DNA from: Clostridia bacterium
Lineage (GTDB): Bacteria > Bacillota > Clostridia > UMGS1883
Length of the DNA: 64,000 nt
NCBI GenBank assembly: GCA_030527235.1
Contig: JAUNBL010000001.1
Location: 10,294-74,293 of the forward strand
Direction of reading: 5' to 3'
A model generated the notes under the pieces. That model was not told the DNA's origin and did not search any database. It worked only from the letters and a program-made list of their open reading frames with translations. How positions within the stretch are numbered: position 1 is the first letter of the stretch; every line of letters starts with the position of its first letter. Both the position numbers and the translations under genes were made by a program. Below, piece after piece: positions 43,092 to 56,830 of this stretch.

Positions 43092-45632
43092 TTATTTATA
43101 TCTGCATGCAAAACCAAGCGGTTTTATAGCAGACAAACCGTCCCAAATCATAATCTTTGCATATGCAGCAGAGTTAAAGTAGGTTTCAAAATTCTTAATC
43201 CGAGTTGAATTGGTAAGATTAAACATTTGGATTACTGTCATGCTGTTTTCGCCCTTCGCAAGATTATATCCGTTATTGATAAAATTGCTTATCATTCGTC
43301 CGTTTTTATTATAGAACGCAACTGCAAAGCATACGGTTTTTGCCTCAGGCGCTGTGACGGTAAAATCTACATTATTATCTTTTTTAACTTTAAATCTCGG
43401 CTCCGTTGCGGTGAACGGTGTTCTGACAATCAGTGTAGTGCTTGTATTGGTAGTGCCGCTGATATATACTCCATATTCCGTGCCGTTTATTTTCATTTTG
43501 TTATTGCCGAAAATATAATTTTCCTCTGTCTTTATGGGAACATAAAGATAATAGGTCGTCCCCTCTGTCGCAACAGTGCCTGCAGGGAGCTTGTTTGCAA
43601 CACCGTACGCTTCTGTTGGACACCAATAAAGCGTGCTTACATAGTAGTTAGCTGAGACTGTTGTAAAGTCGTCCTTCTGCGCAAGAGTGCTGCCGCCTTC
43701 GGGCGGTTCAAAGAAGATTTCTGCGTTGTTTAATACTCTTACATAAACAATCAGCTTGCTTGAACTTACACGAACCGTATCGGTCATCTGCTGATTGTTC
43801 ACCTGCAAATCAAGGTTATCCGCGGTAAAAAATCCATTCAATGTTATTTTTGCAATATAGTTTTTGCTCATATCAAATTTATCGGTTTCATTCATTGCGT
43901 TTGCGGCCGTATATGTATCGCCCTTGCACCATGAAACAGAGTCAACTGAGAAGCTGTCTTTATTAGGCGTATATACTACATCCGCGGGCGTTTCGCACTC
44001 ATACATATTCGTCATTACAAGCCTTGCCGCCTTTATTTTCTCACTTTCCCACACGGCATATGCCGTAGTTGTATCAGATACATTTACTTGCTCTCCTACA
44101 CCGTACAGCTTGCCGTCCACTCTCCAGCCCACAAAACTGTCGTCGTCTTTGGTGTAGGTACATTCCGGTAGGATAAATTGCCCGTCAGCAGTCAAAAGTT
44201 TTGACATACTTCCCGAGCCGCCATTTGAGTTAAAATGAAGAGCGCACAACGGTTCCGGCAGATCAACCGCGAAAGTATTTGAGCTGACGACATAGTGCGG
44301 TGTACATTCTCTTCCGTTAATCGTTACCGGCGGCCACGGATATTTCAATTCAAACTCCGAGCCTGGTATTGACTTAAGCGTTATTTTAAGCCGATATTCG
44401 TATCCTTTCGTAAGCTTCGAATTGGTTTTGTCAACCCATTCCGTTTCACCTATCTTTCTGCCCTGCCACTGATAGGTGTCTATAACCGCTCCTTCCGAGG
44501 GAATGTATACAACCGGTTGGAATACACCGTAGTAATAATTAGGCACAGAAAGTTCTATTTCCGGTATCGGCGCTTTGCTGGTGCCCTTGACATGATCGCA
44601 ATATTTACAGACGTCATTGACGTAGCTATGTCTTTCATAGCCGCGGAAAGCGCCGCAGCCCTTGCAGGTTTTTCTATGGTGAGTTGCGCCGTAATATATG
44701 GTATCGCTGCCGCTGGAGGTTTCGCCGTATTCATATGCCTCCTCATAGCTTGTGTTTACATGCGTTACGGTAACGGTTGCTTTATCGCTGTACACCTCTC
44801 CTGCACGGTTATATACCTTGCAGTAATATTCCACACTGCCCTGCCATGAAAAGCTGCTGTCTGTGGTAAGCTGTGCGCCGCTGCCAAGGCATACGGGGTC
44901 CTTGCCTTCAACCTGATAGTACCAAAGATACTTAAGCCCTTCCCCGGTTGCCTCGATGCTAAGTGCTACGCTTTGATTGCATTTTTTCGTAACATTTTGG
45001 GGCTGGCTTGTAATCACCGGCAGCGCATATGTTGTTTTATATCCGCAGTCGGTACACACGCCGTCCTTAAAGTAGTGTTCGTATTTAAAGCTTTCAACAT
45101 TAAATATATAGGGGCAACCCGTGACAGCGCATTTATATCCGTGATAATCCTCGTCGATGGCACCGTAGGAATTCATATCCGCTTCATGCACATGGGAACC
45201 GTCGTCAATGGCATAGCCCCTCATAATTTGGATAACTACAACATCATCCTCGTCCGCAAAAACACTATAATCAACATTTTTCGTGAGCACCTCGCCGTTT
45301 ACGGTGACCGTAACGCTTTCGGAAAACTCATATCCGTCCTTCGGCGCAATCACAAAGAGGTAACCGTATATTCCGGCGGAGGCAAAGCTTGTTATAATGC
45401 TTTCTTTTTCCAAATCACCCCAATAATGAATATCCGTGCCGTCGTAATTCTTTACCGTATAATTTGCTCCCGAGGGAATCGACAGATATTTGCAGCTGCC
45501 GTTTGCCACGGGAATAATATCTCCCGTAAGAGTAACTGTCGTAATTTCTGTTGCCGCAAACGCTGTATTAGGCAGAATCGCTAACAATATGCAGAGTGTC
45601 AAAACTGCCGACAAAATTTTTTTGCTTTTCAT
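43092..45632 (-). CDS. Large secreted protein with His/Cys modules and a Flg_new repeat
   Basis: 846 aa. Signal peptide: ILSAVLTLCILLAILPNTAFA. Modules include HVHEAD...YKCAVTGCPY, GVCTDCGYK and THHRKTCKGCG...CKYCDH. Flg_new repeat: LHFNSNGGSGS...FVGWRV. The C-terminal tail is shared with the 1083-aa protein. Confidence 0.7.
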   Translation of the reverse strand: MKSKKILSAVLTLCILLAILPNTAFAATEITTVTLTGDIIPVANGSCKYLSIPSGANYTVKNYDGTDIHYWGDLEKESIITSFASAGIYGYLFVIAPKDGYEFSESVTVTVNGEVLTKNVDYSVFADEDDVVVIQIMRGYAIDDGSHVHEADMNSYGAIDEDYHGYKCAVTGCPYIFNVESFKYEHYFKDGVCTDCGYKTTYALPVITSQPQNVTKKCNQSVALSIEATGEGLKYLWYYQVEGKDPVCLGSGAQLTTDSSFSWQGSVEYYCKVYNRAGEVYSDKATVTVTHVNTSYEEAYEYGETSSGSDTIYYGATHHRKTCKGCGAFRGYERHSYVNDVCKYCDHVKGTSKAPIPEIELSVPNYYYGVFQPVVYIPSEGAVIDTYQWQGRKIGETEWVDKTNSKLTKGYEYRLKITLKSIPGSEFELKYPWPPVTINGRECTPHYVVSSNTFAVDLPEPLCALHFNSNGGSGSMSKLLTADGQFILPECTYTKDDDSFVGWRVDGKLYGVGEQVNVSDTTTAYAVWESEKIKAARLVMTNMYECETPADVVYTPNKDSFSVDSVSWCKGDTYTAANAMNETDKFDMSKNYIAKITLNGFFTADNLDLQVNNQQMTDTVRVSSSKLIVYVRVLNNAEIFFEPPEGGSTLAQKDDFTTVSANYYVSTLYWCPTEAYGVANKLPAGTVATEGTTYYLYVPIKTEENYIFGNNKMKINGTEYGVYISGTTNTSTTLIVRTPFTATEPRFKVKKDNNVDFTVTAPEAKTVCFAVAFYNKNGRMISNFINNGYNLAKGENSMTVIQMFNLTNSTRIKNFETYFNSAAYAKIMIWDGLSAIKPLGFACRYK

Positions 45633-46095: not shown

Positions 46096-46162
46096 AAAAA
46101 GATATTATCTATTGGATACTTTTGGGGCTTTTTCTTAAATATTATCCATTGGATAATGTGCA
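46096..46162 (-). promoter_or_regulatory. Conserved operator/promoter block, copy B
   Basis: Perfect 17-bp palindrome ATTATCCA-T-TGGATAAT at 46141-46157. A degenerate second site lies at 46104-46120. Homologous to 31476-31540. Confidence 0.6.
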
Positions 46163-46213: not shown

Positions 46214-46247
46214 CAAAAAAAGAACCGACCGAATAATCAGTCAGTTC
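46214..46247 (-). terminator. Rho-independent terminator of the LuxR-type gene
   Basis: On the minus strand: GAACTGAC-N10-GTCGGTTC (one mismatch), followed by T7-8. Confidence 0.6.
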
Positions 46248-46262
46248 GATAAAATATATTCT

Positions 46263-47864
46263 TTAAATTTTTGTACTACGGCGAAGCTCGTCAAGACGTC
46301 CGCATCGTTTGAGCAAATCTATATAAAGCATTAGTTCATCTCTGGATGAAACCTCTAATTTTTCATAAATACTTCTGTTATGTCTTCTTACTGTACTCAT
46401 ACTGATATACGCGAGATTGGGTATTTCCATAATCTGATATCCTTCAATATAATATTCTAAAATATTGTATTCTGCATTTGTCAAAGTTTTTGCACGTTCG
46501 ATAAAGTTATCAAAAATTTCCTGTATCCCCTCCGGTATACCGGTGTTTTCAGATATTGTGTTTTGTTGCTGCGTATGCAGGAAATTCATAAGTTCGTCTA
46601 TTTCAGACAGTCCGGTTTTAGATTCATGCGTTAAATTCCCGTTTTGAATTGCCTCAAGCTGTTTTGCAATGGGCTGCACATATTTTCGCGAGAGAAATAC
46701 CGACATAATTATCATAATTAGTAATAATGCGGCAAATACTGTAATATAAATTACTTTCCTTTTAACGGCATACTCACGGAAATTCGACGCCGGCAAAAGA
46801 ACCGAAACCGTCCACTCTGTATCGTTTAACGGAGAAGACGATATTGAAATTTCCTTTGAAAGTCCAACATACTTTCTTTCATCTGATGTATAGTAGTTAA
46901 AATTACCCGATGGCTTTATACAAAAAATTTGCTCGGAAAATTTACCTCTGTTATCAGCACCGCATAGCCCCTTTGACAAACATAAATTTCCATTTTCGTT
47001 CGGAGACAATGCCGTAACAATTGTTCCAAACTTACTTTCAGAGGACGGATGAGCAAGCCTGAAATACAGTTCACTTATTTCAACACCGCATATACCGTAA
47101 AATTCTCCTTGGCTACCGATAATAGGAACAACAAGCAGCATTGCTTTTTCCCATGTGTCCGTAAGCGATTCCTTTTTCGCCCATAAATACGAATTTGCTG
47201 CGCGCATCGGAGAACTTTGCTGCATTTCCATGTAATAAGGAAACTTTTTTATATTAAACTCCATATTCCATCGATTATGCAGTTCAAGCTTGTTTTTTCT
47301 TGCAACCTCTTTCATACCGCGAAACAGTGCTGTTTCCGAATTGACAGGATTGCTGTCATTGACGCTCGTGCGGCGAAGATATAGTCCACAGCGTGAAAAT
47401 TCGGAGTCCTTTGCCGCAGTATTGACCGTCACATCCAAAACAACATAAGCTCCGCTGCCTTCGGATGATTCCAAAGCTGTATTAAGCAAATTATACATTG
47501 ATTGCTGCAAATCTCGGATTTGCATAGGATCATTATTTAAGCTCTCAAACGACCGATTATTTTTTTTCAGTAAATATTCTATTTCCGTGCTTATTTTACT
47601 TGAAAGCTTAATGCCTTGAGCATTGGTACGGTCAAACTGCTGCATAATTTTAGACGAAGAATTTTCAAGCGTCATTGACAGACATTGGTTTAAATGCTGC
47701 TTTGAAAACGAAAATACATCCGTCACAGAGCAAATTATAAGCAAAATGCAGATAATAGCCGAAACGATGGACAAAAAATAATACATTAGTTTTTTCTGCA
47801 TACTTGTGCTGCGATTCTTCATCTGACGGTATATCATTTTTAAATTTTCCAAGTATTTTTTCAT
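46263..47864 (-). CDS. Membrane-anchored one-component regulator: TM, extracytoplasmic sensor domain, TM, LuxR/GerE-type HTH
   Basis: 533 aa. TM1: YFLSIVSAIICILLIICSV. TM2: VIYITVFAALLLIMIIMSVFL. C-terminal HTH: NAEYNILEYYIEGYQIMEIPNLAYISMSTVRRHNRSIYEKLEV. Confidence 0.7.
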   Translation of the reverse strand: MKKYLENLKMIYRQMKNRSTSMQKKLMYYFLSIVSAIICILLIICSVTDVFSFSKQHLNQCLSMTLENSSSKIMQQFDRTNAQGIKLSSKISTEIEYLLKKNNRSFESLNNDPMQIRDLQQSMYNLLNTALESSEGSGAYVVLDVTVNTAAKDSEFSRCGLYLRRTSVNDSNPVNSETALFRGMKEVARKNKLELHNRWNMEFNIKKFPYYMEMQQSSPMRAANSYLWAKKESLTDTWEKAMLLVVPIIGSQGEFYGICGVEISELYFRLAHPSSESKFGTIVTALSPNENGNLCLSKGLCGADNRGKFSEQIFCIKPSGNFNYYTSDERKYVGLSKEISISSSPLNDTEWTVSVLLPASNFREYAVKRKVIYITVFAALLLIMIIMSVFLSRKYVQPIAKQLEAIQNGNLTHESKTGLSEIDELMNFLHTQQQNTISENTGIPEGIQEIFDNFIERAKTLTNAEYNILEYYIEGYQIMEIPNLAYISMSTVRRHNRSIYEKLEVSSRDELMLYIDLLKRCGRLDELRRSTKI

Positions 47865-47897
47865 TGAATGACCTCCTTGTTTTTTGTCTTATGAGGT

Positions 47898-49250
47898 CTA
47901 TTGAAGCTCTGATTGCAGCCTTTCAAAGTATTTGCCAGATATGTCATATACAGCCGAATCAGGATTTCCTCCCGCATCCACTATATCTATATATTCTTGT
48001 CGGGCATCTGAAAGCAGCCGCCGAACGGTGACGGTAAATGCTGTTTCAGAATCCAGATAACTGTCAAAGCGCGGAGGATATACAAATTCATAATCAGGAT
48101 TAATATCCTGTATTGTTTTATATAAATCTTTGTATTTCGGATCCGTAAGCTGCTCCGTTTCCTTGATTAAATACTTATCGTAAGCCTCGTAGCATACAGG
48201 GACATAGCCGAGAGAAGTCACGAATTTCGTGTTTTGCTCCGGAGCTGTCAGCCATTTGATAAACGTGCAGGCTGCCTTTTCCCGTTCCGGTGTCGATTTT
48301 ACCGTACAAAATCCGCTGCCTCTTTGCATAACCATCTTTTTTCCATTTTCAAAGTTCGGATAGGGCAAGGAAATAATTTCAATTTCCTCCGAGGTATTGT
48401 CCTCGTATGTAACAATATTTTCATAATACAAGACGCTTGCCGAAGAAGCAAGAGTAGCAATGGCGTCACCTGTACGCAGCGCCTCTGTGGCATAGCCCTC
48501 TCCCAGCCACACACCGCCTTTTATTGCAGCCGGCGCAAGCACATCCCAGGCTGTTTGATACGATTGGCAAAAGGAAAATTGTTCGTCACGAAAGAAATCC
48601 TCGCCAAGTGCCTGCACACCTACTTGAAAATAATGAAAGGGGTAATCGTTTGCCAAAAACGCCTTACCTCCACTCCACTCCGCGTATAATGACGCCGCTT
48701 TGTACAGTCCTTCCCATGTAGCAAGGTCATCTAATTTTGCTCCCGTTTCCTTTGCAAAACGATCAAACAAGGTTTTATTGATAAACAGAAGCTCCGTGGA
48801 CTTAGCAACCGGGAAAATGAGCAGTCGCTTGTCAAAGGTTCCCTCATCCAAAAACTCTTTTATGTAGCCTTCAAGATCCGCATCGCTAAAATAATCTCTA
48901 TAATCTACCAACATATCCGAATCCTGCATTGCGGACACAGTTTTGGGGTAACAGTTGAAAATATCCGGAAGTTCAGGTGCGCCCGGTTCATGATTTACAG
49001 CCGCCAAAACACCCTCATGTATTTTGTTGCTGTTTGATACAGACGTTACTGTAATTTGAATTCCTTCTTTTTGTCCGACCGTGCTGTTAAATTCATCAAT
49101 TAATTCATTAATGGGCGATGCCACCTGTTCTCCGTACACATGCCAAAGTGTCAGTTGTATGGGTTCTTTGTTTTTGCTTACACCGCATCCCGCCATTGAA
49201 GTAATCAGGCATATTCCGCATAAAGCGCATAGTATTTTTTTGTGTTTCAT
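47898..49250 (-). CDS. Orphan extracellular solute-binding lipoprotein (ABC SBP family 1-like)
   Basis: 450 aa with lipobox ITSMAGCG and a general SBP pattern. The window contains no permease or ATPase genes. Confidence 0.65.
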   Translation of the reverse strand: MKHKKILCALCGICLITSMAGCGVSKNKEPIQLTLWHVYGEQVASPINELIDEFNSTVGQKEGIQITVTSVSNSNKIHEGVLAAVNHEPGAPELPDIFNCYPKTVSAMQDSDMLVDYRDYFSDADLEGYIKEFLDEGTFDKRLLIFPVAKSTELLFINKTLFDRFAKETGAKLDDLATWEGLYKAASLYAEWSGGKAFLANDYPFHYFQVGVQALGEDFFRDEQFSFCQSYQTAWDVLAPAAIKGGVWLGEGYATEALRTGDAIATLASSASVLYYENIVTYEDNTSEEIEIISLPYPNFENGKKMVMQRGSGFCTVKSTPEREKAACTFIKWLTAPEQNTKFVTSLGYVPVCYEAYDKYLIKETEQLTDPKYKDLYKTIQDINPDYEFVYPPRFDSYLDSETAFTVTVRRLLSDARQEYIDIVDAGGNPDSAVYDISGKYFERLQSELQ

Positions 49251-49305
49251 ATCGTTATCCTCTCTTTATTGTTTTACGAGCTTTCTGCGGCTGCTCATTT
49301 CATTC

Positions 49306-52300
49306 TTATTTTATCGTGTATGCCTCGCAAAGCGGTTTTATAGTTTCCATGTTTTCCCAAAGGAAAATTTTATCTCCGACATACATTTCTATATCCTCTG
49401 GCTTATTTACATAATTAACTCCGGCACTATATTTTTGCGTAACCAGTTTTATATTATTTAAGACATTTCCTTCGTAATCGGCAAATACCAATGTATATTC
49501 TCCGTCTTCCGCACAGGATATGTTTGCCGATTCTCCGTTTAAATCATATAAATCAATTGAGAATACGCTTTCAGTATCGCTTACAACAACATCTGAAAAT
49601 TCTGTCACATTGAATGATACCCAGTTACCGGCTGAAGAATATGAAATATTGAAGGCTTCAGCCTCTCCGCTCTCAACTTTCGCATGCCCTGACGGATAAA
49701 AATATTCTTTTGTTCCGTCTTGTTTTATGTGAATTATTTCTTTCGGTTCCATTGTGCCGACATAGATAGAAACATTCATTAACTTACTTCCGTTAAAAGA
49801 AGAATCATCAATATTGACAGTATTTGTATCATTTATAGTCATTGTTGGGGTAAGCGAGAATGTAATGGAGGAACCTGTTCCTTCTTTTTCATTGCCCTCT
49901 ATGTAATCTGTTACCGAAATATTCACGTCTACGTCAAGTTTAACGATATTTTGTGTACTCCAGTCCTCTACATAGCCTATAAGAGTTTCGTTTATTGCCT
50001 CTTGTGTTAGCGCTTCAGACATACCCGAAATGGTAGATAAATCCACCGCTGCATTTTCCGATGCGCTAGGAGTGTCTCCTGTCAGCCTTGTAAAATCCTT
50101 CGTGGAGGACGCGTCATTTAGCGTATAATTAATGCTCTGTTCTGAATTTAGCGGGTTCGCAACCGTGCCGTTTTCCGTCATTCGGTAAAGATAGACTTTT
50201 GTTTCGGTAACAGAAGCGCCTTCATATTTTGCACCTATTCCGTTATAATAATCTTTTTCCAATATAGAGAATCTGTGCAGTCCGTCTATGCTGTAAAATC
50301 TTAAATATCCGCTTTCGGTATCAGCCCATGCTTCATTATAAACAGATTGTAAATTTACCGTTTTGTCATCGTTTAATCTTATACGGTAACCGTATTTTGC
50401 ATAAGCGTCGCCCATCCAAAAATGTCCGCCGTCGTCTGCAAGAGAAGAAACCATTCCGTCAACTGTACTCTGCAGTGAATATCGAATTTCTCCGTTATCT
50501 AAATCACTGCAATCCGCAGCAAATTCTGTCGTAAAGATAAATACGTTTTGGTCATCTGCGTCTTTATACTTAAACGTGCTGCCGTCCTCCGACATAGTTA
50601 TCGGAACGGCAGGAAGCAACGTATCGTCCGATAAGCCGCCTTTTTCACCCTTATCATCTGCGCCTACCGGAGCCACAGCATAATAACTGTCTCCGTATTG
50701 TGCAACAAGTATATACTTGTTTTGCATAACAATTTCATCTGATTTTGTTACTTTGGTAAATATCGGCATACTTTTTTCGCAATAATCACAAAAATCATCA
50801 TCGTTTTCGTCCTTTGCGCCAAGAGCAAGGATAATAAGATCATCTTTATTCCAAATTTCCGAAATACCTTCGCTGTCAGAATAGTACATATCGCATACAT
50901 TACACGTCCAATATTCCTTCATACCGTTTGTATAACAGGTCGGCGCAACTTCAGGCGAATGAATAAGACCGTCTTCATGATGACATTTTTCATAATATAC
51001 ATAAGCTTTTATATGATTTTCATCTATTGTATTTGATACTGAAAAATAAGGTTCGCCGTCATTTGTTATAAGGCAAATATATTTTTGACTGTCTGTATCA
51101 TCATTCATATAACCATATTCATATCTCCAATAGGTTGCATTTTCTTTTGTGCATACAAACTTCAGGTTTCCCGAATCGTTCTTCAGATAATTCTGACCGA
51201 TTTTTATATATTTCGGAGTATATGTGTAACCGTCACTGCTTGTTGTTGAGCTGCCGTCTTCTATGGTTGCAAATGCGGCGGTATCATTGCTTGCTTTAAA
51301 CACGCCGGTTATTTCTTCGCTGATTTCAACGGCAGCCATTCCTTTTTCGTTCGGCATACCCATTGCATAAATTTTACCATTATATTCTGCTGTGAAAATC
51401 TTTTTAGAACCGTCTCCGGTATTGTTGTAGCCAAAGTATGAAGTTACAACTTCAGCGCCGCATACACTACATTTTCCGTCTGCATAGCTATGGTTTATTG
51501 ACGGTATATCTATAGTGTTTATATCAATCTGCGTATTTGTTGAGCTTCCTTCAAAATATTTGCCGCAGTCTTCACATTTTGTATAGGCAATATTTCCGTG
51601 TTCTGTGCAGGTTGCTTCCTTCGGCGGCACAATTGTAGTATGCGCGTGCGCGGCAAGCGGCAATACCGTATCGGCAAGCTTGATTTCCGTAGTTTTATCT
51701 GCCTTTAAATATCCGCAGCAATTTGAGCAATAATAATATTCAATATTTCCTTGCTCCGAGCAGGTGCTTTCCTTTGCATCATAATGAGTCAGACCCGCTT
51801 CATCGTGCGTACATACCTCCTTGTACAAATATGTATTTACCGGTATGTTATCTTCTGTAAGGCCACCTGTTGTCAGACCGGTACCGTCAAGATCAATATT
51901 GTTGTCACTAATCAGTCCTCCGGAAAATGCCGGATTGGTCATACTGCCGCTTTGATAGTGGAAAAACCGAATATAGGAAGACTTTTCCTCTGAAATCGCT
52001 TGATTGATTTTAAACTCTTTGGTGGTTTTAAACAGCACTGTCCCGTCCACACGAAATTTCAGTTCCCATTCGCTCATTCCGTTGCTATCCATATGAACAG
52101 GCAAGCTTTTGGACTTGGTATCGGAAAAGTCAGAGGTTTGAGAAACGGTAGAATAAAAAGCGCTCAAATATTGTAATAAATTGTCCGCATTTTTAAACGT
52201 GTACTGTCCTTGAGTTCGATATGCTCCAAGCCTGACAGCGAGAGGACGTATACTATTGCTGTAATCCTCCGCCAGACTAAGTGTATCATCTGCATTTTTC

Positions 52301-52557
52301 TGCATCGGAACCGCTGACCGCCTGCCGGTGTTAAGTGTATTAGTGTCAGATACTTCATCACCAAGCGCATAATATGCTTTGGCATCCGCATCATAGCCGA
52401 CAATCAGATATTTCGCACCTACCACAAGGTCATCCGCGGAAGTAACTCGCCTAAAGCGTACTGTGCTGTCAATTGCTGCCGCCGCCGGTATACTCGGCAG
52501 CATTGCAATAAGCATTGTAATCATAGTAAAAATACAAAGAAATTTTTTGACTTTCAT
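49306..52557 (-). CDS. Large secreted protein with repeated His/Cys modules
   Basis: 1083 aa. Signal peptide: ITMLIAMLPSIPAAAA. Modules include STCSEQGNIEYYYCSNCCG, ATCTEHGNIAYTKCEDCG, GKCSVCG and PTCYTNGMKEYWTCNVCD. C-terminal tail: KIFLWENMETIKPLCEAYTIK. Confidence 0.7.
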   Translation of the reverse strand: MKVKKFLCIFTMITMLIAMLPSIPAAAAIDSTVRFRRVTSADDLVVGAKYLIVGYDADAKAYYALGDEVSDTNTLNTGRRSAVPMQKNADDTLSLAEDYSNSIRPLAVRLGAYRTQGQYTFKNADNLLQYLSAFYSTVSQTSDFSDTKSKSLPVHMDSNGMSEWELKFRVDGTVLFKTTKEFKINQAISEEKSSYIRFFHYQSGSMTNPAFSGGLISDNNIDLDGTGLTTGGLTEDNIPVNTYLYKEVCTHDEAGLTHYDAKESTCSEQGNIEYYYCSNCCGYLKADKTTEIKLADTVLPLAAHAHTTIVPPKEATCTEHGNIAYTKCEDCGKYFEGSSTNTQIDINTIDIPSINHSYADGKCSVCGAEVVTSYFGYNNTGDGSKKIFTAEYNGKIYAMGMPNEKGMAAVEISEEITGVFKASNDTAAFATIEDGSSTTSSDGYTYTPKYIKIGQNYLKNDSGNLKFVCTKENATYWRYEYGYMNDDTDSQKYICLITNDGEPYFSVSNTIDENHIKAYVYYEKCHHEDGLIHSPEVAPTCYTNGMKEYWTCNVCDMYYSDSEGISEIWNKDDLIILALGAKDENDDDFCDYCEKSMPIFTKVTKSDEIVMQNKYILVAQYGDSYYAVAPVGADDKGEKGGLSDDTLLPAVPITMSEDGSTFKYKDADDQNVFIFTTEFAADCSDLDNGEIRYSLQSTVDGMVSSLADDGGHFWMGDAYAKYGYRIRLNDDKTVNLQSVYNEAWADTESGYLRFYSIDGLHRFSILEKDYYNGIGAKYEGASVTETKVYLYRMTENGTVANPLNSEQSINYTLNDASSTKDFTRLTGDTPSASENAAVDLSTISGMSEALTQEAINETLIGYVEDWSTQNIVKLDVDVNISVTDYIEGNEKEGTGSSITFSLTPTMTINDTNTVNIDDSSFNGSKLMNVSIYVGTMEPKEIIHIKQDGTKEYFYPSGHAKVESGEAEAFNISYSSAGNWVSFNVTEFSDVVVSDTESVFSIDLYDLNGESANISCAEDGEYTLVFADYEGNVLNNIKLVTQKYSAGVNYVNKPEDIEMYVGDKIFLWENMETIKPLCEAYTIK

Positions 52558-52666
52558 AAAATATTTCTCCTTTCAGATAATACCACATTTTTGCACAGCT
52601 CTCGGCTGTGGCTGTCCGAGAGCCGCATACTTGCCTTGATTTTACCGCAGTAGCCTACGCCGCCTT

Positions 52667-53050
52667 TTACAACGTATCAACAACGGCTGATAAATACGCC
52701 GCTGAAACAGAGCTGTAAATAAAATTATCAATCAGACCGTCTTTTTTTGCCTGAAGCACACGCCGTGCCAGCGTCTTTTCAGCATTTTCATCGACAATCA
52801 GGACAATTTTACACTTCGGACTGTAACACTTTACTTCATCCCTTATTTTGAGCCGTTCTTCCAGCATCCACGGAGTATATCCGGTTACTTCGCAAAGAAG
52901 CGCATACGGCTTGAAAAGATTACAAAGCTCTGCCGTTTTGTCCGGGCTTTCCGACATTCGTACATCAAAATCGGAATCTGCTCTTTTTAAGGCTTGCACA
53001 ATTGCATCAGCAAAAAGATAGTTTTGCATATCTACAACAATCCGCTGCAT
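52667..53050 (-). CDS. Stand-alone pseudo-receiver (REC-like) protein
   Basis: 127 aa with a CheY-like alternation. At the expected phospho-acceptor position the sequence is LLCEV (Glu rather than Asp). Confidence 0.45.
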   Translation of the reverse strand: MQRIVVDMQNYLFADAIVQALKRADSDFDVRMSESPDKTAELCNLFKPYALLCEVTGYTPWMLEERLKIRDEVKCYSPKCKIVLIVDENAEKTLARRVLQAKKDGLIDNFIYSSVSAAYLSAVVDTL

Positions 53051-53170
53051 TTCCTCACCCTTCTTTCTTTAAATAGGCATACTTATATCTTCTATAATGA
53101 TATTATAAATGATTTCAAAAAAAACGCATTCCCCAAATGGGTACTTTTGCAAAAAAAAATTAAAAAATTT

Positions 53171-53211
53171 TAAAAAAATAAAAAAAGCATCCAACTTTTT
53201 TATTTGGATGC
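53171..53211 (-). terminator. Rho-independent terminator after the response-regulator gene
   Basis: GCATCCAA-N9-TTGGATGC, followed on the minus strand by a long T tract. Confidence 0.7.
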
Positions 53212-53231
53212 CGTAATATTTTGTATTTTCG

Positions 53232-53855
53232 TTAAAACCCGTTGACAATAACTCGTTTGCTCATCACCATAGCCGCAAGCTTGGTCTTGGAAGTGAAGCC
53301 TGTTTTAGACAGCATATTTCCGATATGCTTTTTCACACAATCCGATGTTACGCCGAGCTGTTCGCCCATCTCTTTATAAGTCATTCCGTCCACCAACAAA
53401 CGAAGGACATTTATTTCCGCTTCACTGAATTCATAAACAGATGCATTTCCGATTTTTACTTCCGGAGTTCTGTCAGGGTAGACAGATTCTCCGTTTACAG
53501 TCATTTCCACAACTTTCATCAGTTCCACACGGCTTATATCCTTATACCAAAGGCTGTCTGCACCGACTTCTTTTGCTCTTTTCAAATATCCGACATCCAG
53601 CATGGATGTTACAATGATAACCTTAATTCTCGGAAATTGTGCTTTTATCGCTTTTGTAGCTTCAAAGCCGCTTTCATCGTTTTCCGTGCAGACATCCATC
53701 AGCACAAGATCTACCTGCGTAGTTTTGCAGAAGGCTTTAGCAAGGCTTGCCCATGCTATAGAGCCGGCAAGCTTATACCCCTCCGTCTGATTGATGTAGT
53801 TTTCCATTGTTTCGCGCATCATACGCTGATCCTCGACTATCAATACATTTATCAT
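53232..53855 (-). CDS. NarL/LuxR-family response regulator
   Basis: 207 aa. REC domain: MINVLIVEDQ...DLVLMDV...IIVTS. HTH: SEAEINVLRLLVDGMTYKEMGEQLGVTSDCVKKHIGNMLSK. Confidence 0.85.
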   Translation of the reverse strand: MINVLIVEDQRMMRETMENYINQTEGYKLAGSIAWASLAKAFCKTTQVDLVLMDVCTENDESGFEATKAIKAQFPRIKVIIVTSMLDVGYLKRAKEVGADSLWYKDISRVELMKVVEMTVNGESVYPDRTPEVKIGNASVYEFSEAEINVLRLLVDGMTYKEMGEQLGVTSDCVKKHIGNMLSKTGFTSKTKLAAMVMSKRVIVNGF

Positions 53856-54799
53856 AGCTTTTCCTCCGTTTTAAGCGGGACTGATACCGTTAATTCAAAT
53901 TGCGGCGAGTGTTTTACCCGCATCGTTCCGCCGCACTTTTCAATGCGAAGCTTCAGTGAGGTCAAACCGCCGCCGAGCGAGATTTCGCCGTTTGGCACAG
54001 CTCCGTTATTGGTTATAACGGCAACAGCCGTATTCTCATCACCGGTAATATGCACATATAACTCTTTAGCTCCTGCATGGCGCACCGCATTGGTCATACA
54101 CTCCCGTATAGCCGCAATCAAGACTTCCCCGGCAATATCTTTCGGAAGATTTCCTTCTAAAATTATTTTAATACCTATACTGTACGCAGCGCTCATAAGC
54201 CCGGCAACGGCATCCTGTTCTTCGGAAAGCTCAATTTCATGCCTTAAAAGACTGACGACATTTTTCCATGGTATCAGATCCAATTCCTCCATTGGTCTGT
54301 TCTGTTGCAAAAAACGTCTTGCCGAAATAACGCTCCTGCCAATATCATCATGCACGCGCATTTTCATATTCAAAATTTCTTCTTCGCGTATCAGCGCTAT
54401 GGTATTTGCAAAGAGGCGGCGCATACGCTTTGCGTACTCCGCAAGGGCAATATTATCCTGTTCGAGTTCTTTTGTTTTGCTATACAATTCGGTTACATCA
54501 GAGGCTATAACCTGCGTATATATCTTATTATCCGGTGTGGTAACGGTTTCCAAAGCAAAGCGCCATGCGGTTTTGTCATCTTGTAAAAAAACTTGATTTT
54601 CTCTGCTTTTTGCAGTATTGTCATTCAAAAACTCCTGCAATTCCGACAGGCTTTGTAAATCCTTGCCCGTCAGTGCAAAGAACAAGCGATACATTTGATG
54701 ATTGCACAGCGTGAGTATGCCGTTTTTATCAAAAAAACAAATTCCGCTTGGCAGATTATCAAAGGCTTCTTTTACGGAATTTCTTATAAATCGTTTCAT
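53852..54799 (-). CDS. Soluble HisKA_3-type histidine kinase (N-terminal PAS-like domain)
   Basis: 315 aa. H-box: RVHDDIGRSV. ATPase: NAVRHAGAKELYVHI...ITNNG...GGGLTSL. There is no TM segment, and both gene ends overlap their neighbours by 4 nt. Confidence 0.8.
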   Translation of the reverse strand: MKRFIRNSVKEAFDNLPSGICFFDKNGILTLCNHQMYRLFFALTGKDLQSLSELQEFLNDNTAKSRENQVFLQDDKTAWRFALETVTTPDNKIYTQVIASDVTELYSKTKELEQDNIALAEYAKRMRRLFANTIALIREEEILNMKMRVHDDIGRSVISARRFLQQNRPMEELDLIPWKNVVSLLRHEIELSEEQDAVAGLMSAAYSIGIKIILEGNLPKDIAGEVLIAAIRECMTNAVRHAGAKELYVHITGDENTAVAVITNNGAVPNGEISLGGGLTSLKLRIEKCGGTMRVKHSPQFELTVSVPLKTEEKL

Positions 54800-56502
54800 T
54801 TGCCGTCACCTCCCGTATTCATACGAAGGGTGAGCTTCCATTCGTTATCCTCATCACGTTCCACAGTAACATTATCCGAAACAAAATCAGAAAAATCAGC
54901 GGCGGAATCCGTATTTATATTCAAAAACAAAAAACCGTCTTTTTTCCCGGCATATACGGTAATACTGCATATGTGGTCAAGAGCGCGCTCTGCGATATTT
55001 TCAAAAAAATCATACATTGCGATTATTTGATAAGCCAAAACCGGCTCTGTAAGCTCTGTGCGAAAGCCGCAGGAAAATCCGCAGACCTCCAAATTGTCCA
55101 TGGATTCTCCTATGGTCAGTACAAGCTCGTTTGCGTCAAGCGTAGAGGACTTATCTGCCAAGAAAACAAGATTGCTGCGCCGTTTTAAATAGGCGCCGAT
55201 TACCAGCATTTTTTGCAAAAGCCTTCGTTTTTCGTCACCGTCCGCTGTTTCGGCTTGCTTTATCATAGTATCCATAAGGCAAATCTGATGTGCGGTATCA
55301 TGCTGTATGATATTATAAAGCCTATCCTGCTCCATAATGTGTGCTTCTCGTTTTTTGAGCGCTTGTTCTTCTTCAAGAATTTTGTTGCTGTCCTCTAAGT
55401 TTTCTTTTGCTTCCTGCAACTCCTCCAACACTTTTAATAGCGGAGACATATCCTCTGTCCAAACCACATGACCTTTTCTTATAGGTGCGCCGGATAATCG
55501 GACGCCGCCTTGGAGCATAACCGATTCATTTTTTGTCTTTGCAAGGGTTTCCGTATCAACGTTCTTTGCCGCCACGGAGGATAGAAGTACCTGATAATCC
55601 TTATCGGTGATCTGTGCGCCTGCGGTAGAGACACAAAACAATTCCATATAGTTTGTATTCGCCTGAATAAAACCGCACTGAATGCACAGTTCAAGCGTTG
55701 CGGCATACATAAGGCAGATGACCGCCGTTACATCTCCCCAAATAACCCGCAGCCACGAAACACCGGAGTAATAGAATATCAGATACAGGAGCAAAGCGAT
55801 GATTGGAATACAAGGAACAAAAATCAGTTTTTTGCTTTCTGCAATTCTTCGCTTCTTACTCATTACATAAAGCATACTCAAAGCGCAGAAAAGCATCCAT
55901 GCAGTGACAATGTAATATCCCACACCGTAACTGTAATCATTATCCGTCCGAACTGCCGCATCTGCCGGAAATGTGAACACAAACTCATGCAGATCATTTG
56001 TGATGACCAACAGAAAAAGAAACAGTGGCGGTATGTATAAAAGCACCGCCTTCTTAGGCAAACGTGAGTCCTCTGTTTTTCCGATGGACATTGCCACATA
56101 CACTGCCAGCAGCGGAATAAAAAGCATAGAAAGGTAATACGAATACCAGAGATGCCGTACAATGCCGGGATATAGTTCTGCAGAAATGAAAAAGTATTTC
56201 AACGTTCTTATAATAAACCAGAATATCATAAGAAGTGCAATAGCAGACATATAACACCGTATCCGCGTTTGAATAATTCGATTATAGAGAGATGCACCCC
56301 ATGCGGCAAACAGTGAAATAAATATAAAGGAACGCAGAAGCCCGACTTCTGTTACATAATATCCGTTGTTGCCGATAATGCGACAGCTATAAGCTATAAG
56401 GAGCATAACTGTAACGACAAACATCATAATGGCAGTCTTATTTTTTGACTTTATCACGGCGGTCACCTCACTTTTCCGAAAATCTTTATCGCTGCCGCAC
56501 AA
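54796..56502 (-). CDS. Polytopic membrane sensor with a HisKA_3-like DHp and a degenerate ATPase domain
   Basis: 568 aa with about 8 hydrophobic segments in the first 290 aa, then a coiled coil and EQDRLYNIIQHDTAHQI (H-box-like). I saw no clear N/G boxes in the C-terminal domain. Confidence 0.6.
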   Translation of the reverse strand: MCGSDKDFRKSEVTAVIKSKNKTAIMMFVVTVMLLIAYSCRIIGNNGYYVTEVGLLRSFIFISLFAAWGASLYNRIIQTRIRCYMSAIALLMIFWFIIRTLKYFFISAELYPGIVRHLWYSYYLSMLFIPLLAVYVAMSIGKTEDSRLPKKAVLLYIPPLFLFLLVITNDLHEFVFTFPADAAVRTDNDYSYGVGYYIVTAWMLFCALSMLYVMSKKRRIAESKKLIFVPCIPIIALLLYLIFYYSGVSWLRVIWGDVTAVICLMYAATLELCIQCGFIQANTNYMELFCVSTAGAQITDKDYQVLLSSVAAKNVDTETLAKTKNESVMLQGGVRLSGAPIRKGHVVWTEDMSPLLKVLEELQEAKENLEDSNKILEEEQALKKREAHIMEQDRLYNIIQHDTAHQICLMDTMIKQAETADGDEKRRLLQKMLVIGAYLKRRSNLVFLADKSSTLDANELVLTIGESMDNLEVCGFSCGFRTELTEPVLAYQIIAMYDFFENIAERALDHICSITVYAGKKDGFLFLNINTDSAADFSDFVSDNVTVERDEDNEWKLTLRMNTGGDGK

Positions 56503-56830
56503 TTATTCATTTTAGGCTGTGCCGAAAAATAGTTAACTATAATTATTATATCATTAATTTCTCAATTTGTCCATTGACGGAATATGAGAAATTTATTATG
56601 CTTTTTTATGCACTATCGGCGATACGAATAAATTTCATTTTCGGAGTAAGATAACTTGACGTTGTCTGTTAAAGCAACAGCGGCTCGGTTTTTTTATTGT
56701 ATTTTTTAATCATGGATTGCAGCGTTTGCAAGATTCATACTGCCGGCGAAACGTCTGCTTCTTCGATAGGCTCTACCGACTTACTCGTGCAGGATATTTA
56801 TATAGAGTCAAAGGAATTAAATTGACTTAC

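Follow-up and report, generated by a model that had tools for sequence, protein, structure and literature searches.

A seven-gene island on a Clostridia conjugative element carries two recurrent signaling modules, a kinase cassette with a predicted pseudokinase and a solute-binding protein with a transmembrane LuxR regulator, that may act in series

A membrane protein that does not itself phosphorylate a response regulator can modulate a real histidine kinase by direct contact, as in the RetS/GacS, UhpC-UhpB, and LiaF-LiaS systems. In Caulobacter, the pseudokinase DivL, which has a dimerization and histidine phosphotransfer (DHp) and catalytic and ATP-binding (CA) fold with Tyr in place of the phosphorylated His, controls the separate PAS-containing kinase CckA in a circuit that includes the single-domain receiver DivK (PMC4211667, PMC5361649), and in the FasB/FasC/FasA system of group A Streptococcus labor is divided between the products of two adjacent kinase-like genes that accompany a regulator (PMC12675982). 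Solute-binding proteins (SBPs) without a transporter stand next to dCache-type receptors in LuxP-LuxQ, NspS-MbaA, and HptA-HptS, and stimulation by an SBP is well documented for dCache receptors that are kinases, chemoreceptors, or GGDEF/EAL proteins (PMC8050422). Membrane-tethered DNA-binding domains under control from outside are known from ToxR/ToxS, TcpP, TfoS, CadC, and ChiS, the last of which is controlled through the periplasmic binding protein CBP (bioRxiv 10.1101/2020.01.10.902320; PMC11856585). Here, we describe an island of seven minus-strand genes in a 64,000-nt stretch of Clostridia bacterium DNA (assembly GCA_030527235.1, contig JAUNBL010000001.1, positions 10,294 to 74,293), hereafter the window. 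The island consists of two separable, recurrent signaling modules on a conjugative element: module A, in which a seven-transmembrane (7TM) protein with a predicted pseudokinase tail accompanies a soluble kinase, a NarL-type regulator, and a putative pseudo-receiver, and module B, an SBP with a tethered LuxR-type regulator. On balance, we consider it probable that the two modules are wired in series.

An earlier note, made from the sequence alone, had listed seven minus-strand open reading frames (ORFs) in this island, and we found all of them between 46263 and 56502, together with the two 4-nt overlaps it described, between the 568-aa and 315-aa genes and between the 315-aa and 207-aa genes. 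Much of what the note said of the individual genes also held, namely that the 568-aa protein lacks N and G boxes, that the soluble kinase has its own H-box, that the regulator gene is followed by a terminator, that a receiver-like protein carries Glu at the phospho-acceptor position, that a 1083-aa secreted protein contains Cys modules, that a family-1-type SBP lipoprotein lacks a cognate permease or ATPase, and that the last regulator has the order transmembrane (TM) segment, sensor, TM segment, and LuxR domain. Flanking genes include a VirB4-like ATPase, an NlpC/P60 hydrolase, a GGDEF gene, a DNA methylase, and an IS110 element, and the island is therefore cargo of a conjugative element. All 10 genomes sampled from the same family or order lack both the 7TM family and the tethered-LuxR family, which fits horizontal acquisition, and a megablast search of the island against plasmids gave no match. 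To survey related loci, one genome per GTDB species was scanned with an alignment of 13 closer 7TM sequences as the query; 590 7TM relatives were confirmed in GTDB species genomes, and 80 of these loci (labeled L001 and so on) were analyzed; cultivable carriers include Oscillibacter sp. PC13, Eisenbergiella porci, Clostridium porci, and Faecalicatena contorta. The 74/74 and 28/28 counts below refer to loci with enough flanking sequence, and genome-level counts refer to 300 sampled genomes of class Clostridia from 178 genera.

The 568-aa frame of the 7TM gene opens with TTG. The ribosome-binding site GAGGTGA precedes a GTG at 56457, and a start there gives a 553-aa protein, which is likely the actual product and is how databases call it. 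Its sole Pfam or NCBIfam match is HisKA_7TM; no HATPase Pfam match was obtained, and a PDB sequence search returned nothing useful. The family comprises 2,611 clusters at 50% identity with E<=1e-3 and 1,142 with E<=1e-30, nearly all of them of about 550 aa. The same genome holds a second, more distant member in an 855-aa frame on another contig (C91:11587-12918, E 4e-67), which belongs to a longer 7TM type also seen in L008 to L010 and in genome G008. In an AlphaFold2 model derived from 70 diverse sequences of the family (predicted local distance difference test score, pLDDT, 91.5), a polytopic membrane domain is followed by a small beta-rich domain at residues 280 to 336, a long helical hairpin, and a compact alpha/beta domain at residues 443 to 547. 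When the cytoplasmic part was searched with Foldseek, the top matches were the PAS-DHp-CA kinases YF1, ThkA, DivL (4q20), DesK, and HK853, with E values from 9e-7 to 1e-3, and by model and structural match together the protein has the DHp and CA (Bergerat) folds.

The motifs of a working kinase are not retained in this fold. The alignment of 70 family sequences contains no N, G1, or G2 box, a Glu (62/70) aligns with the N-box Asn of the partner kinase family, and the CA-like domain, at about 108 aa, is missing the ATP-lid segment. The earlier note had also pointed to an H-box-like motif in this protein, and this claim did not survive: the His of the cited QHD motif falls in a column with no conservation (Arg in 13, Asn in 10, Ser in 9, and Glu in 8 of the 70 sequences, with others besides), while the column homologous to the phosphorylated His lies five residues upstream and is Tyr in 65 of the 70. 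The latter assignment comes from an hhalign profile alignment of the 7TM and kinase families that places RLYD on the kinase RVHD with an E value of 1e-5 and a moderate probability (60% global, 35% local); on this alignment, the Tyr would be the substitution known from DivL. Together, the alignment and the predicted fold indicate that the cytoplasmic part keeps a histidine-kinase fold and is catalytically dead, that is, a predicted pseudokinase.

The sequence of the tail is nevertheless strongly conserved in over 1000 clusters at 50% identity: K425, R426, E376, R379, Y381 (553-aa numbering), E451, Y482, and E490 are invariant or nearly so, and the tail is therefore selected for something other than catalysis. 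In the membrane part, the polar residues N154, H157, D242, and N267 are invariant, which suggests a ligand or ion site. Both observations speak against a view in which the 7TM protein is a mere anchor or scaffold, or is transporter-like, with the kinase-like tail vestigial and the PAS domain of the soluble kinase sensing the input. The soluble kinase does have a PAS domain of its own, and pseudokinase domains can be vestigial, yet a tail conserved across so many clusters argues for a selected function, and we regard this explanation as unlikely.

By its sequence, the 315-aa protein encoded next is a predicted real histidine kinase. It has weak Pfam matches to PAS and HATPase_c, it resembles UhpB, NarQ, and LiaS in NCBIfam, with UhpB the best, and among PDB sequence matches its CA domain is nearest to DevS, DosT, and DesK. 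Across 78 family members, the H-box His150 is invariant (78/78), Asp151 is found in 71 and the N-box Asn237 in 77, and a GGGL G2 box is conserved. The G1 box (residues 263 to 269) reads TN(N/D)GxxP; in 75 of 78 members, Asn replaces the Asp through which HisKA_3 kinases contact adenine. The 207-aa regulator matches the Pfam families Response_reg (9.6e-18) and GerE (4e-10) and has the acceptor-Asp motif LMDV, which places it in the NarL/FixJ group. The terminator behind its gene, a hairpin with a T-run, has equivalents in related loci; it was missed by an automatic scan, its loop being 9 nt long.

The three genes are found together with great regularity. The kinase gene came next after the 7TM gene in 74/74 loci, a NarL-type regulator gene followed the kinase gene in 70/70, and a start codon that allows the 4-nt overlap between the 7TM and kinase genes was available in 65 of 76. 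We also found a natural fusion of the 7TM protein to a PAS kinase in the representatives library (P0359, 1050 aa), whose residues 720 to 1047 are 36% identical to the 315-aa kinase. The linker between the two halves of this fusion is about 160 aa long, and a gene-call artifact is possible.

The earlier note had suggested that the membrane sensor may make use of its soluble partner's catalytic domain. The obligate pairing of the two proteins stood, as seen in the 74/74 adjacency, the 65/76 overlaps, and the fusion, but the borrowing was not supported. A split heterodimeric kinase of this sort, in which the 7TM protein would give the phospho-acceptor His and the soluble kinase the ATPase in trans, would be comparable to FasB and FasC, which heterodimerize and which need the His of FasC but can do without its kinase domain (PMC12675982). 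The pairing and the fusion are compatible with such a kinase, as is an HD dipeptide in the DHp region of the window's own 7TM protein. However, that His is not conserved in the family, the phospho-His-homologous position is Tyr, and the soluble kinase, with an invariant His-Asp of its own, needs no donor DHp domain; trans-phosphorylation of the 7TM protein is therefore unlikely, and we give the split kinase very little credence. Fas differs in that its partner with the dispensable kinase domain carries the essential His, whereas in the pair described here both His and ATPase belong to the live partner and the dead one lacks a conserved His. Allosteric control of the real kinase by the predicted pseudokinase is more likely, and fits the alignments and the model better than a borrowed catalytic domain.

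Allosteric control of this kind would bring module A close to DivL, CckA, and DivK, with which it shares a predicted pseudokinase with Tyr for phospho-His, a separate PAS-containing kinase, and a single-domain receiver protein. Unlike DivL, the protein described here is a 7TM receptor with a lid-less CA domain, and its partner is a small soluble HisKA_3 kinase that would feed a NarL-type regulator; the receiver is a Glu pseudo-receiver, and the whole forms one translationally coupled cassette, is found in Clostridia, and is known here from sequence and predicted fold. RetS differs in keeping its kinase motifs and in having a 7TMR-DISM region where the protein described here has HisKA_7TM, and the partner kinase here is soluble. 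UhpC and LiaF, in contrast to the 7TM protein, have no kinase fold.

Downstream of the regulator gene lies a 127-aa protein gene, which is present in 43 of 55 7TM loci. The protein has no Pfam or NCBIfam match, and its best PDB sequence matches, to CheY and another receiver protein, are weak (E 0.12 to 0.15). In hhalign, it aligned with the receiver domains of the cognate regulators over 101 columns with a probability of 88% and an E value of 3e-6. Glu54 is invariant in 28 homologs, within an MEV motif that aligns on the regulator's MDV, and Gly or Ser stands where receivers carry a conserved Lys, so that the acceptor Asp and Lys of a working receiver are both absent. These features mark the protein as a predicted pseudo-receiver with Glu at the acceptor position.

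Between the regulator terminator and the pseudo-receiver gene, we found an imperfect palindrome, TACCCATTTGGGGAA (53129-53143), with a -10 hexamer TATAAT (53102-53107) that begins 22 nt past the core TACCCATTTGGGGA. In most related loci, a palindrome occupies the same interval and ends 20 to 23 nt upstream of the -10 hexamer. A search anchored on the -10 hexamer returned strong palindromes in 17 of 43 loci, compared to 2.4 on average and at most 8 in shuffled sequences. Across loci, the palindrome varies together with the recognition helix of the regulator: TACCC..GGGTA pairs with the helix types TDCVKKH, IDTVKAH, and KDNVKYH, ACTGGCAC..GTGCCAGT with SKNGVRWN, and CTGTAC..GTACAG with ERTVKYH. 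The palindrome at 53129-53143 is thus a probable binding site of the NarL-type regulator, and no other site of this type was found in the 64-kb window.

In module B, the 450-aa lipoprotein has a lipobox and matches SBP_bac_8 (6.6e-33), the family to which NspS also belongs, and SBP_bac_1 (3e-14); its nearest solved relatives are sugar SBPs and UgpB, whose ligands are sugars or glycerol-3-phosphate. The 533-aa regulator encoded next has TM segments at residues 22 to 48 and about 359 to 385 and a GerE/LuxR helix-turn-helix (HTH) at 460 to 514, so that the DNA-binding domain follows the second TM segment in the same polypeptide. Its AlphaFold2 model (pLDDT 83.8) shows a TM helix, a long helix with two alpha/beta modules, the second TM helix, and the HTH. 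Almost all of the top 50 Foldseek matches to the sensor part were dCache ligand-binding domains, from chemoreceptors and KinD (best E 8e-7), and no Pfam dCache sequence match was obtained for this domain. The tethered-LuxR family is present in 32 of the 300 genomes (about 10%) and in 26 of the 178 genera.

In all 28 loci in which it could be scored, the LuxR gene is immediately preceded by a same-strand gene for a member of this SBP family. A second SBP-LuxR pair in the same genome, at C63:81710-84733 (L094, 8684-11734), is likewise adjacent and only 27% identical. No BPD_transp_1 permease gene was found on the whole contig of the window, nor near the SBP-LuxR pairs with annotated neighbors (the window contig, L094, and L008 to L013). 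The suggestion in the earlier note that the SBP acts as a co-sensor for the tethered regulator is therefore well supported by context, that is, by the 28/28 pairing, the paralogous pair, the lack of a nearby permease, and the dCache fold, and we consider this role probable on sequence and model. The alternative is an ordinary transport SBP with its permease elsewhere, merely co-regulated with the LuxR protein or secondarily sensed by it. Some signaling SBPs, such as MBP, ChvE, and CBP, also serve transporters (PMC8050422), and 15 BPD_transp_1 permease genes are present on other contigs of the genome. However, no permease accompanies the annotated pairs, and a dedicated host permease is unlikely for a horizontally acquired element, given the absence of the family from the 10 genomes of the same family or order; we consider a transport role quite improbable. 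The second pair has as neighbors a 1577-aa beta-helix/GH141-like/Laminin_G protein, SLH and PA14 proteins, and zinc-ribbon proteins, with no 7TM/kinase/regulator cassette nearby.

A co-sensing SBP would relate module B to the SBP-stimulated receptors, but the output here is a GerE/LuxR DNA-binding domain in the same polypeptide and not a kinase, chemoreceptor, or GGDEF/EAL protein, and the review of these classes lists no such type (PMC8050422). ToxR and CadC have an N-terminal winged HTH and a single TM segment, whereas here a C-terminal GerE domain follows a TM-dCache-TM unit, in Firmicutes; ChiS, in turn, is a hybrid kinase with a cryptic HTH. Past the LuxR gene, two palindromic boxes, TATCCAATGGATA and TATCCAATAGATA, form a probable operator of the tethered regulator, and related loci have two repeated, lineage-specific boxes in the same place.

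The earlier note had proposed that both circuits converge on a shared operator block. This was not borne out, since the palindrome at 53129-53143 has no second copy in the window and is distinct in sequence from the LuxR boxes (46106-46155). On the minus strand, the terminator and the regulator-type operator are followed by the pseudo-receiver gene, the 1083-aa gene (inserted here), and the SBP and LuxR genes, after which come a strong terminator, the LuxR boxes, the 126-aa gene, and the 846-aa surface-protein gene. We found no strong minus-strand terminator between 53050 and 46263, and a strong one just past the LuxR gene. The genes from the pseudo-receiver to the LuxR regulator are bounded on one side by a terminator-promoter and on the other by the next strong terminator, and module A therefore probably sets the level of module B. 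This layout suggests that the circuits are serial, with module A driving the operon that holds module B, and not convergent.

The two modules could instead be independent neighbors, with the SBP and LuxR genes under a promoter of their own and the adjacency an accident of how the cargo of a mobile element is assembled. The modules are separate in most genomes, SBP-LuxR pairs occur without a 7TM gene (L011 to L013 and L094), and in the window the 1083-aa gene stands between them. However, the SBP and LuxR genes directly follow the pseudo-receiver gene in 8 of 47 7TM loci, from several families, far above chance for a gene found in about 10% of genomes. The order is the same, with gaps of 0 to 46 nt, at 35 to 50% protein identity, and L008 to L010 join both modules in a second, different order. 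Independence is accordingly an explanation we take seriously as a possibility and do not favor. At the genome level, the 7TM family was found in 20 of 300 genomes, the LuxR family in 32, and both in 4, where about 2 would be expected, and with so small an overlap we rejected the idea that the modules form one obligate system. Rather, the rare co-occurrence and the 8/47 adjacency make the cascade an optional and not a defining feature.

Several points weigh against serial wiring under a pseudokinase-controlled cascade. The modules share only 4 of 300 genomes and are adjacent in only 8 of 47 7TM loci, and in the window the 1083-aa gene and a hairpin at about 52600-52635 separate the pseudo-receiver and SBP genes. 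The profile alignment between the 7TM and kinase families is of moderate probability (60% global, 35% local), and the G1 box of the kinase is atypical, with Asn in place of the expected Asp. Finally, every mechanistic step is drawn from sequence, predicted fold, and gene context. Weighing these points together with the evidence above, we lean toward a pseudokinase-controlled kinase cascade and an SBP-LuxR pair connected in series on the element.

In such a series, the 7TM pseudokinase would sense a membrane or external cue. Translational coupling would ensure that it is made together with the soluble PAS-HisKA_3 kinase, which it would control by protein-protein contact through the DHp or PAS domains, as DivL does with CckA and RetS with GacS. 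The kinase would phosphorylate the NarL-type regulator, and the regulator would activate the pseudo-receiver promoter, as the co-varying palindrome at about -41 suggests. The Glu pseudo-receiver would most likely provide feedback by docking on the DHp domain of either the 7TM protein or the kinase, and its operon would, in this element, also supply the SBP and LuxR sensor pair. The sugar-type lipoprotein may then present its ligand to the dCache domain of the tethered LuxR regulator, which would bind the paired palindromes 5' of the 126-aa Zn-ribbon and surface-protein genes and turn surface-protein operons on. Expression of the surface proteins would need both signals in sequence. A more specific version, which we put forward only tentatively and think rather unlikely, is a DivL-like "reversed" four-gene circuit in which the pseudo-receiver, with its phosphomimetic Glu, would dock on the DHp domain of the 7TM protein and flip the kinase to a phosphatase. 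This would amount to delayed negative feedback or a pulse generator, with the same promoter delivering the second sensor, so that the surface-protein genes would respond only to two external signals in the right order.

The combination had not been recognized as a described system in the earlier note, and we likewise found no description of it in Pfam, NCBIfam, PADLOC, or searchable papers. A reading of the island as a defense system was rejected, PADLOC giving no match. The parts are of known kinds (pseudokinase, pseudo-receiver, SBP-stimulated dCache receptor, and transmembrane regulator), and it is their architectures, obligate pairings, and serial wiring that are undescribed in the libraries and papers searched. 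Both modules represent large, unannotated families in gut and rumen Clostridia, and both adjoin secreted, SLH-anchored, Ig-like, and beta-helix surface proteins, often on mobile elements. The modules probably determine the timing of changes in the surface or the glycan-binding repertoire of gut anaerobes. If our reading is true, module A would offer a compact and tractable pseudokinase and pseudo-receiver beside a real kinase-regulator pair outside the Alphaproteobacteria, and module B would add a direct transcriptional output, the dCache-tethered LuxR domain, to the classes of SBP-stimulated receptors. The co-varying pairs of operators and recognition helices are ready predictions of specificity. 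The coordinates of all features are collected in Table 1.

Table 1. Features of the island and its downstream neighbors, in positions of the window
Feature	Coordinates	Strand	Basis or content
Promoter-like site of the 7TM gene (TGGACA, 17 nt, TG-TATAAT)	56545..56573	-	11/12 consensus matches, top score in region; consensus match only
Predicted 7TM pseudo-histidine kinase (TM7)	54796..56502	-	HisKA_7TM, small PAS-like beta domain, DHp-like hairpin, lid-less CA-like domain
Predicted soluble PAS-HisKA_3-type histidine kinase, 315 aa	53852..54799	-	Weak PAS and HATPase_c matches
NarL/FixJ-type response regulator, 207 aa	53232..53855	-	REC and GerE HTH
Intrinsic terminator after the regulator gene	53180..53212	-	GCATCCAA, 9-nt loop, TTGGATGC, T-run; read from sequence
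Promoter of the pseudo-receiver gene with palindrome TACCCATTTGGGGAA	53102..53143	-	Predicted NarL-type regulator site
Predicted stand-alone pseudo-receiver, 127 aa	52667..53050	-	hhalign to receiver domains; Glu54
Secreted protein, 1083 aa, repeated Cys modules	49306..52557	-	ORF and sequence
Solute-binding lipoprotein, 450 aa	47898..49250	-	SBP_bac_8/SBP_bac_1 and lipobox
Transmembrane LuxR-type regulator, 533 aa	46263..47864	-	TM, dCache-fold domain, TM, GerE HTH
Intrinsic terminator after the LuxR gene	46222..46247	-	11-bp stem and T-run
Two palindromic boxes TATCCAATGGATA and TATCCAATAGATA, predicted LuxR operator	46106..46155	-	5' of the 126-aa Zn-ribbon gene
Cys-rich (zinc-ribbon/RING-like) protein, 126 aa	45661..46041	-	First conserved gene past the LuxR gene
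Surface protein, 846 aa	43092..45632	-	Weak Ig-like matches

The genes around the two modules are in part shared with related loci. Inspection of the 1083-aa protein shows a signal peptide, and its sequence contains repeated Cys modules and matches no Pfam or NCBIfam family. A gene of the same type follows the pseudo-receiver gene in L014, and in seven related loci the SBP gene comes directly after the pseudo-receiver gene, with gaps of 0 to 46 nt. This comparison marks the 1083-aa gene as variable cargo that has come in between the pseudo-receiver gene and the SBP gene. Between the pseudo-receiver and 1083-aa genes lies a GC-rich hairpin without a T-run (52600-52635, minus strand, GGCTCTCGG...CCGAGAGCT), which could be a processing or attenuation site or an insertion scar.

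On the far side of the LuxR gene, homologs of the 126-aa protein, which has CxxC pairs and of which one homolog shows a weak Prok-RING_2 match, follow the LuxR gene in L008 to L010, L025, L037, L040, L049, L054, L065, and L096, and this protein may be part of the LuxR module and not mere output. The 846-aa protein gene is likely an output of the LuxR-controlled operon; a homolog directly follows the pseudo-receiver gene in L001 and L002. Further along, the DUF4428, TPM-domain, and zinc-ribbon membrane proteins encoded at 40333-42986 of the window also directly follow the 7TM cassette in the 67%-identical loci L003, L006, and L007, and are therefore part of the recurrent output set of the signaling cassette. 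The 3' ends of the 846-aa (43092-43129) and 1083-aa (49306-49343) genes have a 38-nt stretch of 71% identity in common, and their products share a C-terminal tail.

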